This document shows, one piece after another, positions 5,001 to 25,132 of a stretch of 64,000 nucleotides of DNA. The stretch is from a virus. Both the position numbers and the translations under genes were made by a program. Below the pieces are notes generated by a model. The model did not search any database. It was not told where the DNA came from and worked only from the letters and a program-made list of their open reading frames with translations. Location: the UHGV virus genome UHGV-1366990. One strand, given 5' to 3'. Numbering within the stretch: the stretch's first letter is position 1; each line of letters opens with the position of its first letter.

Positions 5001-6872
5001 ATTACCACGTACACGTACACCGACAGGACGACCACCACCATGACTGGTGAGCAGATCGTTGAAACGCAGGTAATCCCATACATGCGCAAAACGAACATCA
5101 ACTTCGAAGCCACAGGTCTGCGTCCGTTCACTCGTGTGTATCCGTTCTTCTCTGGACGTGATGTGAGCGCGTACTGTACCCCAAACGGTGGTGTACTGGG
5201 TGGTGCGTTGAACACTGACGCCAACGGTAACATCAAAGGTGTGTTTGCGGTTCCTCAGAACGAGACTATCAAGTTTAACACGGGTGACAACGTTTTCCGT
5301 CTGACTGACAGTCCTGTGGATAGCAAGTCTGCTGATGATACCCTGACCAATGCTGAGGCTGTTCATAAGTCCTTCGGCAAGAAACAGGGCATCCAGAAGA
5401 CTTATGTCAATACTCGCGTCCTGGGATACACTGCGACCAAGTCTACGGAAAACAAAACAGAGACGGTTGAAGTCGCGAAGTGGAAAGATCCTATCGCCCA
5501 GTCCTTCATGGTTGCCACCAATATCGGCGGCGAATACATCGAAGGGATTGAAGTCTTCTTCTCCACCAAGTCCCGTGATATCCCGATCACTCTGGAAATC
5601 CGTGAGATGAGCAATGGTCTGCCAGCGACGACTGTCGTCACTCGTAAGACTCTGAATCCATCAGAAGTTTCCACCTCCACAGACTCTTCTGTGCCGACGA
5701 TGTTCAAGTTTGATTATCCTGTGTATCTGCAGGCGCAGACTGAGTTCGCGATCGTACTCCTGGCCAACACTCAGGACTACAACGCATACATCGCAGAGAT
5801 GGGCAAGAAGAACTTGCTGACCAACGAGTTCATTGCCAAACAGCCGTACACTGGCGTGTTCTTCACATCTTCAAATGGTACGACCTGGACTCCAAACCAG
5901 ACTGCCGATATGAAGTTCCGTGTATATCGCTGTAACTTCTCCGCTGGTTCAAACATCGTGACCTTCGATGCTAAAGTCGGTCCGAAGATCCGCCCTCTGG
6001 GTCTGAATACCGTGAAATGTGTCAACGGTTCTTCAACTGTTACTGTGTACGCTCCGGGGCATGGCCTGACTGCGGGTGAAAGTGTTACTCTGTCTGGGTT
6101 GACAGGTGGTTGCGGTTTCACTCCTGAGCAACTGAACGCTCAACACACTGTGACTGATGCGACGTTCACGACATTCAAATTCGTTCTGAGTTCCAACGCC
6201 GACTCCGACGGTCAGATTGGTGGTGAGGCGGCTTCTTTCCTAGGCAACTACTTGGTAGACATGTTCTACGCAAGCGTCACCAATTCAGCCCTGGAAGGAT
6301 CTGTGTTGAAACTGGAATACCGCTATCGCGATGCGACCTCCAACTCATTCTCTGATTGGGTTGAGTTCGAATCCGATACGGACGTGTCTCTGCCGACGGA
6401 AGGTATCTATCGTCAGGTGGGCGACTTCCAGGTTCGTGCAACCATGACTCGCAACGAGAGTAATGTCTACACGGCTCCAATGATCGACGGTGATGATTTC
6501 ACTATCATCTTCAACACCTACGGTGTGGATCCGTTTGAAGATGTGTTCAGCTATGTGACCAAGGATATCGGATTCGATAACCCTTGCACCACTCTGAAGC
6601 AATACTTCGGCGCGATGCTACCTTCTCAGTCTTCAATGACTGTGCAGGTTAAACTGCTACGCGCAGGTCAGGAGATGGATAACGTGGCATGGGAAACTGT
6701 GACACCGACATCCCCTCTGGTCAATGACGGTTCTGCATTCTTCGAATATGAGTATGACAAGACTGTAGACAGCACCAATCCTTTCGTTGGCCTGAAGATC
6801 CGCCTGCTGGTCAGAGGCAACCGCATAGCACCGCCGTCATTCAAAGATTTCCGTTTGATTGCTCTGGCATAA
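2034..6872 (+). CDS. large virion structural protein (about 1612 aa; tail fibre/baseplate-associated)
   Basis: ORF 1863..6872; first ATG with GGAG Shine-Dalgarno is at 2034 (MQEMNL...); position upstream of neck genes. Confidence 0.7.
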   Translation: MQEMNLNRRPYWDDWNPEKRFSRILFRPAPIKVQTRELNQIQTIFQDQLEKLGNHLFKDGSMVIPGGLTITNTAVSMKFTLAGGSEFTDLEGISELYVLGKDNNAKARVLSLERYPAEPDTMYAILEITESGSSDGFEAGDNLYFNTYDVNDNFIRVGYGVADTVGGSIVARMTKGVYFVRGMFLDVEPTTLIVDNASNSTSHRIGFKVTETIVTEAEDESLFSNAQGTPNSKAPGAHRLRVDLVLSRYGYDEEVADFVELAKVKDGRVQSMVTQSTYNILEDAMAQRTYETNGDYNVSTHQIDLREHLKQNNNGGVYTPAEGGDESKFVAVMKPGISYVRGRRIENLGEELVIIDKARDTDILNNNPVAVSTGNYLVSKNSKGVPVVSRTIRYKFLNASSDVQATALLISAERSGTEFRLYMRDLVVTGDMGTVTKVAYEESGTTMFSCELESNQFSQSSAIDLIFPLPVFGVKTLAPTGTIDINYTVLRSNKITLNAAGAGSISAPLGYSFSPEFSLYSAAKADGTAAQFDISSGLSLAGTPVGSALQISLGAGYANQSINLLTLMVRTTATIKTKTVTEATETVTFTAAASAQLGNHDGYKLISVKNANGADVTSNFTLDGGQRDAAYYLSNLISSAGAISGTFTVVYQYFAHSSGDFFTADSYSSINYPDIPNYVSSSSGTVYGLADSLDFRPKITSGASDTDMVRPNTAIILDAEYYLPRIDAVYLADNGVFNVARGVSSNNLASPAIPDNGMRLYELMIPPYTANIDDIQIRTIDNRRYTMRDIGKLETRISNVEYYTSLSQLESSAMSQQVFDPITGNPRFKNGIAADPFKDFRLIDDLSADWVGSIDTDNGRLRPFVQQNAIDLTPVGWNNVQDGMVVCNYTREISVRQDYATTTINVNPYAVFNWEGFLKLNPTTDYWFENYYVTPRVINETINTRGAIKEGSVYGTWRTVSVSERVWEPHGAGGVWWGYRYRTTVSTRDITTYTYTDRTTTTMTGEQIVETQVIPYMRKTNINFEATGLRPFTRVYPFFSGRDVSAYCTPNGGVLGGALNTDANGNIKGVFAVPQNETIKFNTGDNVFRLTDSPVDSKSADDTLTNAEAVHKSFGKKQGIQKTYVNTRVLGYTATKSTENKTETVEVAKWKDPIAQSFMVATNIGGEYIEGIEVFFSTKSRDIPITLEIREMSNGLPATTVVTRKTLNPSEVSTSTDSSVPTMFKFDYPVYLQAQTEFAIVLLANTQDYNAYIAEMGKKNLLTNEFIAKQPYTGVFFTSSNGTTWTPNQTADMKFRVYRCNFSAGSNIVTFDAKVGPKIRPLGLNTVKCVNGSSTVTVYAPGHGLTAGESVTLSGLTGGCGFTPEQLNAQHTVTDATFTTFKFVLSSNADSDGQIGGEAASFLGNYLVDMFYASVTNSALEGSVLKLEYRYRDATSNSFSDWVEFESDTDVSLPTEGIYRQVGDFQVRATMTRNESNVYTAPMIDGDDFTIIFNTYGVDPFEDVFSYVTKDIGFDNPCTTLKQYFGAMLPSQSSMTVQVKLLRAGQEMDNVAWETVTPTSPLVNDGSAFFEYEYDKTVDSTNPFVGLKIRLLVRGNRIAPPSFKDFRLIALA

Positions 6873-15602: not shown

Positions 15603-15878
15603 TCATACCGGATAAGACCACACCCCCCCCCAGATACACCCCAACCCGGTTTCTATCGCCAGTATATCCTCTGTTTTACCTTCTACATTGTATCCAAGTT
15701 TAAGGAATTTCTCTTTCCTGAGTTTACTATCAACCCAAGATCGGCATTCAGTTTCGGTCGTCGGGTTGTTATCCAACAAACCCGGATTGCGTTTCATCGT
15801 CCCCAGCATGAATGATTTACATTCGTCACTACAATACAACGCAGCCTTCCTGGTTGGGTGAACGGTTTGTGACAGCAT
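15603..15878 (-). CDS. homing-endonuclease-derived small protein (nuclease core absent)
   Basis: N-terminal YCSDECKSF and C-terminal GYNVEGKTEDILAIETGLGCIW match the ends of the 490-aa endonuclease at 21901..23373 (FCSDACKTF / GYDVEGKTESQLATEAGLVRIW). Confidence 0.5.
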   Translation of the reverse strand: MLSQTVHPTRKAALYCSDECKSFMLGTMKRNPGLLDNNPTTETECRSWVDSKLRKEKFLKLGYNVEGKTEDILAIETGLGCIWGGVWSYPV

Positions 15879-15950
15879 GAACAATTTTTATCGGGGAATG
15901 GCATAATAAATATCCTCACTTTGGAGTATTTTAACCCCCATTTATTTCAA

Positions 15951-15985: not shown

Positions 15986-16519
15986 ATGGCTACAGTTAAT
16001 GAATTCAGAGCAGCTATGTCACGCGGGGGCGGCGTTCAGCGCCAACACCGTTGGCGTGTGACTGTTAACTTCCCTTCCTTCGTGGCTGGAAGCGATACTA
16101 TCCGTGATGTTTCGCTGTTGGCGGTGACCACAAATACCCCAACAGGCCAGCTCGGGGAAATACTCGTCCCATGGGGTGGTCGTGAACTTCCATTCCCAGG
16201 CGACCGTCGTTTCGAGGCTCTGCCTGTGACGTTCATCAACGTCGTGGACAACGCTCCGTACAACGCATTCGAAGTCTGGCAGCAGTATATCAACGGCAGC
16301 AACAACAACCGTGCGTCTGCTAACCCAGATGATTATTTCCGTGATGTAATCATGGAACTGCTGGATGCTAACGACAACGTCACCAAGACCTGGACCCTTC
16401 AGGGCACCTGGCCTCAGAACCTCGGTCAGCTGGAACTGGACATGTCTGCAATGGACTCTTATACTCAGTTCACTGTTGACCTGCGTTACTTCCAGGCCAT
16501 TTCAGACAAGTCTCTCTAA
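15986..16519 (+). CDS. tail tube protein (T4 gp19-like)
   Basis: C-terminus LQGTWPQNLGQLELDMS...QFTVDLRY resembles recalled T4 gp19 IKGLWPTNVGELQLDWD...TFEVTLALDY. Confidence 0.85.
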   Translation: MATVNEFRAAMSRGGGVQRQHRWRVTVNFPSFVAGSDTIRDVSLLAVTTNTPTGQLGEILVPWGGRELPFPGDRRFEALPVTFINVVDNAPYNAFEVWQQYINGSNNNRASANPDDYFRDVIMELLDANDNVTKTWTLQGTWPQNLGQLELDMSAMDSYTQFTVDLRYFQAISDKSL

Positions 16520-20419: not shown

Positions 20420-20473
20420 TGAACTACTAAGTAATTTCAACTTAACTGAATATCAATGTAAGGAATGACCATC

Positions 20474-21796
20474 ATGGCTAAGAAACTTGTTACCGAACAA
20501 ATGCGCGAGCAGTGGCTGCCAGTTCTTCAGAAAGAATCTGAAAGCATCCAGCCGCTTTCTGCCGAAAACGTTGCCGTCCGTCTGCTGCAAAACCAGGCTG
20601 AGTGGAACGCCAAAAACCTGGGCGAATCCGACGCTCCTGGCTCCGTGAACGCCTCTGTGGGCAAATGGCAGCCAGTCCTGATCGACATGGCCAAACGTCT
20701 GGCTCCGGTCAACATCGCGATGGACTTCTTCGGTGTTCAGCCGCTGTCTGGTCCTGACGGTCAGATCTTCGCACTGCGTGCTCGCCAGGGCGTTGCAGAC
20801 GGCTCCAACACTGCCCAGTCCCGCGCTGAGCTGTTCATGAACGAAGCCAACTCCGGTTACTCCGGTGACGACACTGCACAGGCTGGCGACCCATCTGGCT
20901 TCTCCCAGACTGAGATCGAAGGTTCCGGCGCTGCTACCACCACCATCGGTAAAGGTATGTCAACTGCCGACGCTGAACTGCTGGGCACCACCACCAACCC
21001 ATGGGCACGTGTTGGTATCACCGTTCAGAAAGCAACCGTGACTGCGAAGTCTCGCGGCCTGTACGCTGACTACAGCCACGAACTGCGCCAGGACATGATG
21101 GCGATCCACGGCGAAGACGTTGACAGCATCCTGTCCGACGTGATGGTAACTGAAATTCAGGCAGAGATGAACCGTGAGTTTATCCGCACCATGAACTTCA
21201 GCGCAGTACGCTTCAAAAAATTCGGCACCAACGGTATCGTAGACATCTCCACTGACATCTCCGGTCGTTGGGCGCTGGAAAAATGGAAGTACATGACTTT
21301 CATGCTGGAAGTTGAAGCGAACGGCATCGGTGTTGACACCCGTCGTGGTAAAGGCAACCGTGTTCTGTGTTCTCCGAACGTAGCGTCTGCCCTGGCGATG
21401 TCCGGCATGCTGGATTATGCTCCGGCACTGCAGGAAAACACCAAGCTGGCGATTGATCCGACTGGCCAGACCTTCGCTGGTGTGCTGTCTAACGGTATGC
21501 GTGTCTACATCGACCCGTATGCAGTAGCAGAATACATCACCCTGGCATACAAAGGCGCAACCGCGCTGGACGCTGGTATCTTCTTCGCACCGTATGTGCC
21601 GCTGGAAATGTACCGCACCCAGGGTGAAACCACCTTCGCACCACGTATGGCGTTCAAGACCCGCTACGGGATTTGTGCTAACCCATTCGTTCAGATCCCA
21701 GCGAACCAGGATCCACAGGTCTATGTGACTGCGGATGGTATCGCCAAGGACACCAACGTGTACTTCCGTAAAGGGCTGATCAAAGGCCTGTTCTAA
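20474..21796 (+). CDS. major capsid protein (T4 gp23-like)
   Basis: FGVQPLSGPDGQIFALRA, AGVLSNGMRVYIDPYA, FKTRYGI align with recalled T4 gp23; ATG at 20474 with AAGGA (20465 is an alternative start). Confidence 0.9.
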   Translation: MAKKLVTEQMREQWLPVLQKESESIQPLSAENVAVRLLQNQAEWNAKNLGESDAPGSVNASVGKWQPVLIDMAKRLAPVNIAMDFFGVQPLSGPDGQIFALRARQGVADGSNTAQSRAELFMNEANSGYSGDDTAQAGDPSGFSQTEIEGSGAATTTIGKGMSTADAELLGTTTNPWARVGITVQKATVTAKSRGLYADYSHELRQDMMAIHGEDVDSILSDVMVTEIQAEMNREFIRTMNFSAVRFKKFGTNGIVDISTDISGRWALEKWKYMTFMLEVEANGIGVDTRRGKGNRVLCSPNVASALAMSGMLDYAPALQENTKLAIDPTGQTFAGVLSNGMRVYIDPYAVAEYITLAYKGATALDAGIFFAPYVPLEMYRTQGETTFAPRMAFKTRYGICANPFVQIPANQDPQVYVTADGIAKDTNVYFRKGLIKGLF

Positions 21797-21823
21797 TCGA
21801 ACAGTTGTCCTTAACCCTGACAA

Positions 21824-21848
21824 ACCCCGCTTCGGCGGGGTTTTTATT
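21824..21848 (+). terminator. rho-independent terminator CCCCGC-TTCG-GCGGGG-TTTTT
   Basis: Same hairpin type as at 15082; directly after the capsid gene. Confidence 0.75.
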
Positions 21849-21900
21849 TGTTCATATTATCGAACAGGTTATACTAGATACCATATGGAGGAGAATAATT

Positions 21901-23373
21901 ATGTATCAGGTAATCTGTAGTGTCTGCCATGAACAGTTCAAAGCATCCAGGAAAGATAAGAAATTTTGTTCAGATGCTTGCAAGACCTTCGCATCGAACA
22001 CCCTAAAGAACCTCCCGGAAGGTTTCCTTGAAGCAGTGAATGAATTGTCTGACGAGGAATCATATCGCCAATTTTTCTACAAATATATGTTTACCAAGAA
22101 CAACAAATTGGATATCCAAAAATGCAAATCTGAACTGCTTATGAAGCACATCAATGTAGACCTTTTAGCGTTCGCCAATACCCACAACACCCTACAAGAT
22201 TTGGCTTGTAAAGTCACAGCTTGGCTGTACAATAGAACCGTGAAAATATGCCCGGTGTGTTCCAAGGAAACCAACTTTTATATCAATAATAAAGATTACA
22301 GAACATATTGTTCTGAAGAATGTTATCAGGTTTCTATGTGTAAAGGTGGGATTGGTCGGAAAGCCATAGAGACTTCGAATATATCCAAATACGGGAGCTG
22401 CTCCACACTACAATTACCTGGTGTGAGGGAGAAGGCGTTGGCAACGTTACAAGAACGTTATGGTGTTGACAACCCTATGAAAAACTCGAACATACTAAAA
22501 CGTGCGTTGTTCAGCAATGGTTCTATCAGGAACAAGAAATCTTCTTATGAAAAGGAAATATCCGAGTTTCTCACCTCAATGGGAGTTGTAAACACTGTTT
22601 CTGATTACAGTATATTATCCGGTAAACAACTGGATATCTATTGCCCTGAACACAAATTGGCGATTGAATTTAATGGTCTGTACTGGCATTCAGAAGTTTT
22701 TAAAGAGAAACATTATCACCTGGAAAAGACTGAAATATGTGAATCTCAGGGTATCCAGTTGGTCCACATCTGGGAAGATGAATGGGTTGAGAAACAGGAA
22801 GTGGTCAAATCTCTTCTGAAAGCTAAACTTGGCATTAAAACGCCTGCGTCATATGCTCGCCAACACAAAGTCGTTTGGGGGAATATAAGCGGCTTGAGGG
22901 AGTTTTTAGACAACCACCACATACAAGGTTCCGTTTCTTCCACCCACCATTTATCGTTAATTGACAAGAGTGGGGTCATACAAGCCGTGATGCTATTCAC
23001 TAAAAGGAAAGATGGCCTGGAATTAGTCAGATTTGCCTCTAATGATTGCCACGGAGCATTCAGTAAACTTCTTTCACACTTCAGAAGAAAATTTGCCGGC
23101 ACCAAAATCTATTCCTTTGGGGATAGGTGTGTTGTAAGCAGGTTGTCCAACATTTACCTATCCCACGGATTCGTAGAAGAGGAAGTACAGAAGCCAGACT
23201 ACAAATATCACAAGCCTGGCACATTTATGCGTGAGCACAAATTCGGTTTCAGAAAAGGTTCATTTGCTCGCATGGGGTATGACGTAGAAGGCAAAACAGA
23301 AAGCCAGTTAGCAACCGAAGCCGGGCTGGTCAGGATTTGGAATTGTGGACTGATCAAATATGTCTTGAACTAA
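21901..23373 (+). CDS. freestanding homing endonuclease, Vsr-like PD-(D/E)xK type with N-terminal zinc ribbons
   Basis: Repeated CxxC pairs at the N-terminus; core LDIYCPEHKLAIEFNGLYWH matches the Vsr/DUF559-type signature; GGAGGAG Shine-Dalgarno; inserted after the capsid gene. Confidence 0.6.
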   Translation: MYQVICSVCHEQFKASRKDKKFCSDACKTFASNTLKNLPEGFLEAVNELSDEESYRQFFYKYMFTKNNKLDIQKCKSELLMKHINVDLLAFANTHNTLQDLACKVTAWLYNRTVKICPVCSKETNFYINNKDYRTYCSEECYQVSMCKGGIGRKAIETSNISKYGSCSTLQLPGVREKALATLQERYGVDNPMKNSNILKRALFSNGSIRNKKSSYEKEISEFLTSMGVVNTVSDYSILSGKQLDIYCPEHKLAIEFNGLYWHSEVFKEKHYHLEKTEICESQGIQLVHIWEDEWVEKQEVVKSLLKAKLGIKTPASYARQHKVVWGNISGLREFLDNHHIQGSVSSTHHLSLIDKSGVIQAVMLFTKRKDGLELVRFASNDCHGAFSKLLSHFRRKFAGTKIYSFGDRCVVSRLSNIYLSHGFVEEEVQKPDYKYHKPGTFMREHKFGFRKGSFARMGYDVEGKTESQLATEAGLVRIWNCGLIKYVLN

Positions 23374-23436
23374 AAGAACATTTCAATAACGGGGCGAGAG
23401 GTATTATTGCCCCGTCTACTATCCGAGGGTTGTACC

Positions 23437-24470: not shown

Positions 24471-24788
24471 ATGAACACTCCAAAAATCTCTATCTGGGCT
24501 TTCGACGAATTCACCGCATTTGACGCTCTGATTGCTACTCTGGGTTGTGCTCCTCAGGAAGCGGAAGACGATTACTCCCGCACTAACAAAGTCAAGATGG
24601 TGAACACCACTCACGATTTCAAACACGACCTGAACTCCTTCTTGGACGTTTTGGCTACCACCCTGCCAGAAGCTGACATGGCAACTGTGCGCGGCTCTAT
24701 CTTTAAGAAGAACGGCGAAATGCGCAAGTTAGCGGGTAAAGAAGTGAAATTCGCCGCCGACGGTTTCTTCATCACCATTGAATTCTGA
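24471..24788 (+). CDS. hypothetical early protein (105 aa)
   Basis: ATG in the conserved GAAGGAACTATATCATG start region. Confidence 0.55.
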   Translation: MNTPKISIWAFDEFTAFDALIATLGCAPQEAEDDYSRTNKVKMVNTTHDFKHDLNSFLDVLATTLPEADMATVRGSIFKKNGEMRKLAGKEVKFAADGFFITIEF

Positions 24789-24802
24789 TTGAGGTGCACA
24801 CC

Positions 24803-25132
24803 ATGACTTTTAAAGGCTTTGTAGCATTCGACGCAACCAAAACCAACGTGCTGAGCAATCCGCAGCTGGAAACCATCTCTGAAATGCGCCAGTGGGTGAT
24901 GGGGATCACTGGCCATCAAACCCGCAAAGATCTTGAAGCGGAGTTCTATATCGAACCTGCTGAAGTCTTCTTCAATCGCCCTGAAGATGAACCGTTCATC
25001 CGTCAAGACTTGGATGACAATGATATCACTCTCGCGATCTTCTCTGAAGCAAAAGCGGCTATGATCGTGGACGGCCTGTGTGATGAGTCCTTCACATACG
25101 ATGAATACTGCGATCAGTGTCAGGATCTGTGA
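24803..25132 (+). CDS. hypothetical protein (109 aa)
   Basis: First ATG in ORF 24794..25132. Confidence 0.5.
   Translation: MTFKGFVAFDATKTNVLSNPQLETISEMRQWVMGITGHQTRKDLEAEFYIEPAEVFFNRPEDEPFIRQDLDDNDITLAIFSEAKAAMIVDGLCDESFTYDEYCDQCQDL

Follow-up and report, generated by a model that had tools for sequence, protein, structure and literature searches.

Which gene lies directly behind the major capsid gene of the virus genome UHGV-1366990, and does it behave as a mobile element? The stretch of this genome analysed here (64,000 nucleotides; hereafter, the window) carries on its plus strand an open reading frame (ORF) for a protein of 490 amino acids (aa), running from an ATG at 21901 to a TAA at 23371–23373, downstream of an uninterrupted major capsid gene (20465–21796). 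A first-pass annotation, made from the letters alone, had described this ORF as a freestanding Vsr-like homing endonuclease gene located directly after the capsid gene terminator; we verified the start, the stop and the terminator. We conclude, with a probability of roughly 0.8, that the ORF encodes a free-standing homing endonuclease which belongs, within the Vsr-fold EDxHD family, to the Hef-like branch, and that it corresponds, as the allele of an Escherichia phage, to F-LimVII of Dickeya phage LIMEstone1. This conclusion, which agrees with the first-pass annotation on the freestanding homing endonuclease, is supported by a match to PHROG 3339, by the F-LimVII counterpart and by polymorphism of the slot in which the homing endonuclease gene (HEG) lies.

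The window derives from a phage of the Ackermannviridae (Aglimvirinae, ViI-like) and not, as had been suggested, from a T4-like phage in the strict sense. ViI-like phages contain hypermodified thymidine in their DNA. The region is 98% identical to Escherichia phage vB_EcoM-ZQ1 (ZQ1) and 95–98% identical to LHE287, RPN242, YX22 and AV101. Across these five phages the 490-aa ORF is 98.8–99.4% identical to that of the window, and its counterparts in ZQ1 and RPN242 are annotated in GenBank as “(putative) homing endonuclease”. PHROG 3339 (‘homing endonuclease’) matched the ORF with an E-value of 1.7e-156, and a word-indexed protein search returned 1369 homologs at E ≤ 0.001; the ORF is therefore not a chance reading frame. 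Homologs were present in 418 phage records; in Campylobacter phages a single genome can contain as many as 12 matching places. Some records name the gene an HNH enzyme; this assignment was rejected because the family scan gave no HNH match.

F-LimVII lies at the same position behind the capsid gene and its terminator, has the same three-part architecture and is 87% identical to the 490-aa ORF at the protein level and ~85% identical at the DNA level, the N-terminal third being the most diverged (80% nucleotide identity). The 2012 LIMEstone paper classes it as “Hef-like” and lists it as a free-standing homing endonuclease (PMC3296691). Hef itself, of the T-even-type phage U5, replaces mobE and according to a review cleaves nrdB (PMC2988022). 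Since Taylor et al. (2011) had already placed the Hef-type phage homing endonucleases in the Vsr-like EDxHD family (PMC3239194), the Vsr-fold assignment is prior knowledge. Using tblastn, we obtained E-values of 3e-35 to a ‘Hef-like’ protein of Acj9 and of 1e-31 to a protein of the T4-type phage G8. Both homologs sit exactly between nrdA and nrdB, the locus of Hef, which supports a relationship of the “Hef-like” proteins to Hef; this conserved location, together with reviews and annotations, is the basis for linking the gene to Hef. These nrdA–nrdB homologs share the nuclease and the C-terminal domain with the protein of the window (35–36% identity) but differ in the N-terminal DNA-binding region, such that the alignment starts only at ~aa 200. 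The first-pass finding is right, and ordinary: this Hef-like homing endonuclease gene had been annotated before, and a site beside a conserved structural gene is a hot spot of a familiar kind.

The AlphaFold model of the protein (predicted local distance difference test score, pLDDT, of 93) has three parts: N-terminal zinc ribbons followed by helical KYG repeats, a Vsr-fold nuclease and a C-terminal GNAT-fold domain. The motifs quoted in the first-pass annotation were all found, namely the CxxC...CxxxC patterns at aa 6–27 and 117–141, the core motif LDIYCPEHKLAIEFNGLYWH at aa 244–263 and the C-terminal motif GYDVEGKTESQLATEAGLVRIWNCG at aa 459–483. The Vsr-like fold proposed on the basis of the core motif was borne out by the model and by alignment to PDB entry 3r3p, the catalytic domain of I-Bth0305I, which was the only PDB sequence match (E 0.0018). 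In this alignment E217, D245, N258 and H263 pair with E170, D196, N208 and H213 of I-Bth0305I, residues that correspond to E25, D51, H64 and H69 of Vsr. Among 83 homologs D245 and H263 were invariant and E217 and N258 were conserved to 89–95%; H273, K276 and D293 were invariant in this nuclease branch as well. The modelled nuclease thus shows a Vsr-type fold, as expected of the EDxHD family, that is closest to I-Bth0305I. The latter, the EDxHD prototype, is intron-encoded and carries N-terminal NUMOD/helix-turn-helix (HTH) modules and a C-terminal nuclease, whereas the protein of the window is free-standing, has zinc ribbons and KYG repeats, a central nuclease and an additional 180-aa Mom-like domain.

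The N-terminal 205 residues comprise two zinc ribbons, connecting helices and two KYG repeats. Matches of YacG to the second ribbon were weak (Pfam E 0.0038, NCBIfam E 0.0017), and C117 in this ribbon was conserved in at least 90% of the family. The KYG repeats matched Pfam DUF7487 with an E-value of 3.9e-5 (24.1 bits, under the 27-bit cut-off); the family consensus contains repeated KYGV...K..T....G units, and a paralog in ZQ1 has many more copies of them. This region differed between family members in both its length and its make-up, whereas the nuclease and C-terminal domains were constant. Such variation is the pattern expected for a modular region that would serve DNA recognition.

The C-terminal module noted in the first-pass annotation exists, but it is part of the 180-aa GNAT-fold domain, which is related to Mom of phage Mu. 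When 20 diverse C-terminal domains were scanned against Pfam, the best family was Mom (PF25680), matched by three of them (best E 2.1e-7); generic acetyltransferase families each had a single, weak match. Further members matched positions 3–150 of the 202 in the Mom profile, one of them above the cut-off (34.5 versus 27.1 bits), and 12 of the 120 homologs listed carry a precomputed PF25680 match. Alignment of the family profile to that of 32 Mom proteins with hhalign gave a probability of 95.5% and an E-value of 1.6e-8 over 115 columns. Single-sequence comparisons to Mom were weak (E 5.8e-4 at 29% probability; E 0.093), and only the profile–profile comparison was convincing; the protein of the window by itself had no Pfam match to Mom, the E-value of 0.093 being its score against the Mom profile. 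Judged from these profiles, homology of the C-terminal domain to Mom at the level of the family appears solid.

Invariant or nearly invariant residues of the domain include R320, H340, Q342, G343, R377, G385, D408, Y419, R444 and G483. Four of these, invariant or nearly so in the 83 homologs, pair with Mom residues (H340 with H58, R377 with R111, D408 with D149 in a shared SFAD/SFGD motif, and Y419 with Y159), and R409 aligns with Mom R151 in a single-sequence alignment, R410 being the candidate in other members. The aligned residues of Mom line its active site and are needed for activity (PMC7261163, PMC13219725), and conservation of R111 is reported for Mom homologs but not for GNATs at large (PMC7261163). 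A helical insertion between the last strands occupies the same place as the HTH-like insertion of Mom, which is essential (PMC13219725); the S124A variant of Mom is catalytically dead. S124 and Y59 of Mom have no identical counterpart in the C-terminal domain. In comparison with Mom (PDB 8bv8), a Gly-tRNA-dependent adenine-modifying enzyme with which it shares the GNAT fold, the domain is fused to a nuclease and is ~60 residues shorter.

The domain was found in 19,736 clusters at 50% identity (E ≤ 0.001), and among the 150 clusters listed it was almost always C-terminal in proteins of 420–700 aa. A few GenBank records name homologs “nuclease/acetyltransferase”. These Hef-like numbers alone (418 phage records; 19,736 metagenomic clusters), with GIY-YIG and HNH enzymes not counted, do not support the statement that Vsr-type homing endonucleases are the less common kind. 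Proteins of ~195 aa consisting of the domain only (P0191, P0260) also exist, and a metagenomic protein of 880 aa (P0121) has an N-terminal GIY-YIG nuclease and a C-terminal Mom-like domain of the Hef type. This last protein means either that a second class of nuclease is also combined with the Mom-like domain or that the gene caller fused two adjacent genes.

Is the gene mobile? Good evidence indicates that it is. Comparison of the capsid-downstream junction revealed strong presence/absence and replacement polymorphism among Ackermannviridae; the ORF is not conserved at this locus in all relatives. The 490-aa gene was present in ~25 of 287 capsid-matching phage records (~9%). Homology to Shigella phage MK-13 ends at position 21845 of the window, at the end of the terminator, and resumes at 23381. 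The MK-13 slot consists of 965 bp with three small annotated ORFs instead of the HEG, and PhiSH19 likewise has small ORFs. In RC-2014, KE31 and SW16-7 a gene for ~282 aa, annotated as NUMOD3 or homing endonuclease, replaces the first small ORF. Two of these three genes had weak, sub-threshold SegE GIY-YIG matches, and this occupant is probably a GIY-YIG gene. In PC3, PH4 and A221 the slot is occupied by another Hef-like gene, of 621 aa. One of the small ORFs is retained 3′ of the HEG in RPN242 and pSal-SNUABM-02; the window has none of the three. The proposed insertion after the capsid gene therefore holds for the position but not for a clean insertion, since the small ORFs of relatives were replaced. 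No direct repeats that could represent a target-site duplication flank the ORF; there is only a shared intergenic cassette at its right end.

The sequences around the slot are mosaic. The backbones of PC3 and CECAV_050 are ~99% identical to the window upstream of the capsid gene; PC3 nonetheless has its own 621-aa occupant in the slot. CECAV_050 has an HEG allele that is ~15% diverged, and its divergence is elevated from ~450 bp inside the 3′ end of the capsid gene. Among ZQ1, AV101 and RPN242 the HEG is 99.0–99.8% identical, with some flanking segments at only 78–95%. These patterns fit recombinational exchange of a cassette with co-conversion of neighbouring sequence. The capsid gene itself contains a patch (20765–20915) with 20–25 mismatches per 150 bp relative to AV101, RPN242 and CECAV_050, although the adjoining capsid bins show almost no difference between these three phages and the window. 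ZQ1 and PC3 match the window in the patch, which resembles a small mosaic exchange inside the gene.

The intergenic cassette TTTCAATAACGGGGCGAGAGGTATTATTGCCCCGTCTACTATCCGAGGG that bounds the slot on the right also precedes successive small ORFs in MK-13 (~5080–5135 and 5340–5390 of the retrieved record). It is present twice in PC3 and twice in RPN242 (5917–5960 and 6177–6220 of the retrieved record), where one copy is a hybrid of two MK-13 cassette types. The hybrid copy suggests that small ORFs may be added or removed by cassette-to-cassette recombination.

A second gene of this kind is decaying in the same genome. At 15603–15904 on the minus strand, between a small plus-strand gene ending at ~15564 and the tail tube gene (15986–16519), we found the remnant of a Hef-like gene that is intact, with 594 aa, in ZQ1. 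Relative to the latter, the remnant has an internal deletion of 1466 bp with a 7-bp overlap at the junction, leaving frameshifted stubs for aa 1–65 and 553–594 only. LIMEstone1 has F-LimVIII at this position. Decay of the sister copy is the expected life cycle of a gene that is selfish rather than useful.

The 490-aa gene is not decaying. It was intact in 8 of 8 phages examined, and the ratio of nonsynonymous to synonymous substitution rates (dN/dS) was 0.09–0.13 for the whole gene and 0.06–0.11 in each of the three domains relative to three diverged alleles (0.07–0.09 for the Mom-like domain). A pseudogene was therefore rejected. The synonymous divergence (dS) was 0.5–1.2 between alleles at this one locus in two genera. 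An intron- or intein-encoded enzyme was likewise rejected, because the capsid gene is uninterrupted; the ORF is free-standing, being separate, provided with its own Shine–Dalgarno sequence and located between the capsid terminator and the next small gene.

From these data we propose the following course of events. In a mixed infection with a HEG-less relative, the protein would use its N-terminal modules, and probably the Mom-like domain as well, to bind a long target close to the junction downstream of the capsid gene. The Vsr-type active site (E217, D245, N258, H263, E275) would then cut the DNA, and recombinational repair from the HEG-bearing genome would copy the gene into the recipient, along with markers next to it such as the 3′ portion of the capsid gene.

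Several observations weigh against a mobile, cleaving enzyme of this family. We looked for immunity substitutions that would betray the target site by aligning the capsid gene and its terminator across eight phages with and six without the HEG, and no column separated the two groups; the enzyme may have its target within the segment that was replaced or right at the junction. None of the relatives compared combined the ~99% identical backbone with an empty slot, and recent gain or loss is for this reason inferred from replacement. Long retention at one locus, with a dS of ~0.6–0.8 between alleles, would also fit a gene kept for the benefit of the phage. In the nuclease, D222 of I-Bth0305I aligns with E275, a conservative change from Asp, and this position is E, N or D in only 70 of the 83 homologs. 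Finally, the matches of the nuclease to MTES_1575, DUF559, Vsr and TIGR00632 in Pfam and NCBIfam were all below the curated cut-offs, so that the fold assignment rests on the structure model and the PDB comparisons.

The Mom-like domain raises the question of whether the protein is two enzymes in one. We consider it most likely that this domain is a DNA-binding, base-flipping or dimerisation module. It is possible, if rather unlikely, that Hef-like enzymes combine a Vsr-type nuclease with a still-active Mom-type transferase and use base modification or flipping for targeting, self-protection or cleavage. The transferase would then modify a DNA base, as Mom does with glycyl-tRNA, and the modification could mark or protect the site of the carrier or create a distortion that the Vsr-type nuclease recognises. 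This would extend the homing endonuclease explanation and is partly compatible with it. The profile comparison (95.5%, E 1.6e-8), Mom as the best Pfam family with one member above its cut-off, the counterparts of the activity-required residues (H340, R377, D408 and Y419, with R409/R151 in the single-sequence alignment), the placement of the helical insertion and the low dN/dS of the domain are all what an active transferase would lead one to expect. Yet S124, without which Mom is dead, and Y59 are unmatched, and the protein of the window alone has no significant match to Mom. A modifier acting in trans would also protect the co-infecting target genome, which therefore speaks against simple self-immunity, and a literature search for a nuclease–Mom or nuclease–GNAT fusion, or for an activity of such a protein, retrieved no paper.

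A nuclease that has lost its mobility and is kept because it excludes rivals, degrades host or rival DNA or promotes recombination would account for the strong purifying selection, for the long persistence at one locus in two genera, for the missing target-site signature and for the failure to find a closely related backbone with an empty slot. We nevertheless hold such domestication to be improbable: the gene occurs in only ~9% of the capsid-matching phages, different nuclease genes replace each other in the slot, alleles are shuffled between near-identical backbones, and the sister copy in the same genome is decaying. That the protein is a Vsr-type mismatch-repair endonuclease serving repair of phage DNA is hardly credible. 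The fold is that of Vsr and there are weak matches to the family, but the scores were far under the cut-offs (19.6 versus 97.85 bits for TIGR00632; 18.3 versus 27 bits for Pfam Vsr) and the closest structure is that of a homing endonuclease. The protein also departs from E. coli Vsr (PDB 1cw0) in being multidomain, with large DNA-binding and Mom-like portions added to the nuclease, and in the mobile behaviour of its gene, whose patchy distribution and multiple matching places in some genomes are not those of a housekeeping gene. The free-standing Hef-like homing endonuclease remains our preferred explanation of the locus.

The features of the locus are collected in Table 1. The G+C content of the 490-aa ORF was 0.40 (0.36–0.44 along its length) versus 0.52–0.60 in the capsid gene, a difference that speaks for mobility. 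All annotated homologs begin with MYQVICS; a TTG start at 21805, given in a mechanical ORF list, was rejected on this ground and on account of its location at the capsid terminator. In a terminator scan, the capsid terminator consisted of a hairpin (21822–21843) with a GC-rich 9-bp stem followed by a T run, and the hairpin was kept in 14 of 14 phages compared. The sequence GGTTATACTAGATACCATA is present upstream of every allele of the HEG, the ~15% diverged ones included. A consensus promoter scan upstream of the ORF flagged no promoter, the –35 hexamer being too weak. The conservation, across all alleles, of TTGTTC, a 16-nt spacer and TATACT together with the Shine–Dalgarno sequence suggests that this candidate element is the HEG's own promoter.

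Table 1. Coordinates in the window of the HEG, its encoded domains and the elements that flank it
Feature	Position	Strand	Remarks
Intrinsic terminator of the major capsid gene	21822..21848	+	Left boundary of the variable slot
Promoter-like element of the HEG cassette	21848..21875	+	TTGTTC 21848–21853, 16-nt spacer, TATACT 21870–21875
Shine–Dalgarno sequence GGAGGAG	21887..21893	+	7 nt 5′ of the ATG; direct sequence reading
Hef-like (EDxHD/Vsr-fold) free-standing homing endonuclease gene (probable)	21901..23373	+	490 aa; allele of F-LimVII
Zinc ribbon 1	21916..21981	+	C6, C9, C23, C27; ‘KFCSDAC’ type; sequence; model strands E2–5, E12–15
Zinc ribbon 2	22249..22323	+	C117, C120, C137, C141; weak YacG zinc-finger matches
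Two helical ‘KYG(V)’ repeats	22357..22515	+	DUF7487-like; presumed DNA-binding
Vsr-fold nuclease domain	22537..22833	+	aa 213–311; candidate catalytic residues E217, D245, N258, H263, E275
GNAT-fold, Mom-related domain	22834..23370	+	aa 312–490 (180 aa); C-terminal
Repeated intergenic cassette TTTCAATAACGGGGCGAGAGGTATTATTGCCCCGTCTACTATCCGAGGG	23381..23429	+	Hairpin 23389–23415; right boundary of the variable slot

Two further observations concern the neighbourhood of the gene. At 21788–21804 a palindrome (CTGTTC TAATC GAACAG) overlaps the stop codon of the capsid gene. Its counterpart at this site in relatives is another palindrome (TTGTTTTAAT/ATTAAAACAA), so that pairing is kept while the sequence has changed, and the palindrome occurs in phages with and without the HEG alike; it may form an RNA hairpin upstream of the terminator. 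Farther downstream, at 24471–25132, the window has two small ORFs (105 and 112 aa) that are missing in most of the near relatives (ZQ1, RPN242, PC3, CECAV_050 and ChubbyThor). About half of the segment is matched in AV101 and likewise in pSal-SNUABM-02; the segment constitutes a further variable slot.

As an annotation the result is routine and adds one more intact Hef-like homing endonuclease gene to the Ackermannviridae. The gene helps to explain why the surroundings of the capsid gene are mosaic. This matters in practice: the capsid region often serves as a marker, and these phages are employed in biocontrol and in typing. The gene and its Vsr-fold assignment were already known; the Mom-related C-terminal domain is the addition. 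If this domain were an active transferase, with an aminoacyl-tRNA or an acyl-CoA as a possible donor, the mechanism would be one that is undescribed for any homing endonuclease. The Mom-related domain offers a lead on DNA recognition and processing by Hef-type enzymes and on the origin of the Mom-type modifying enzymes.

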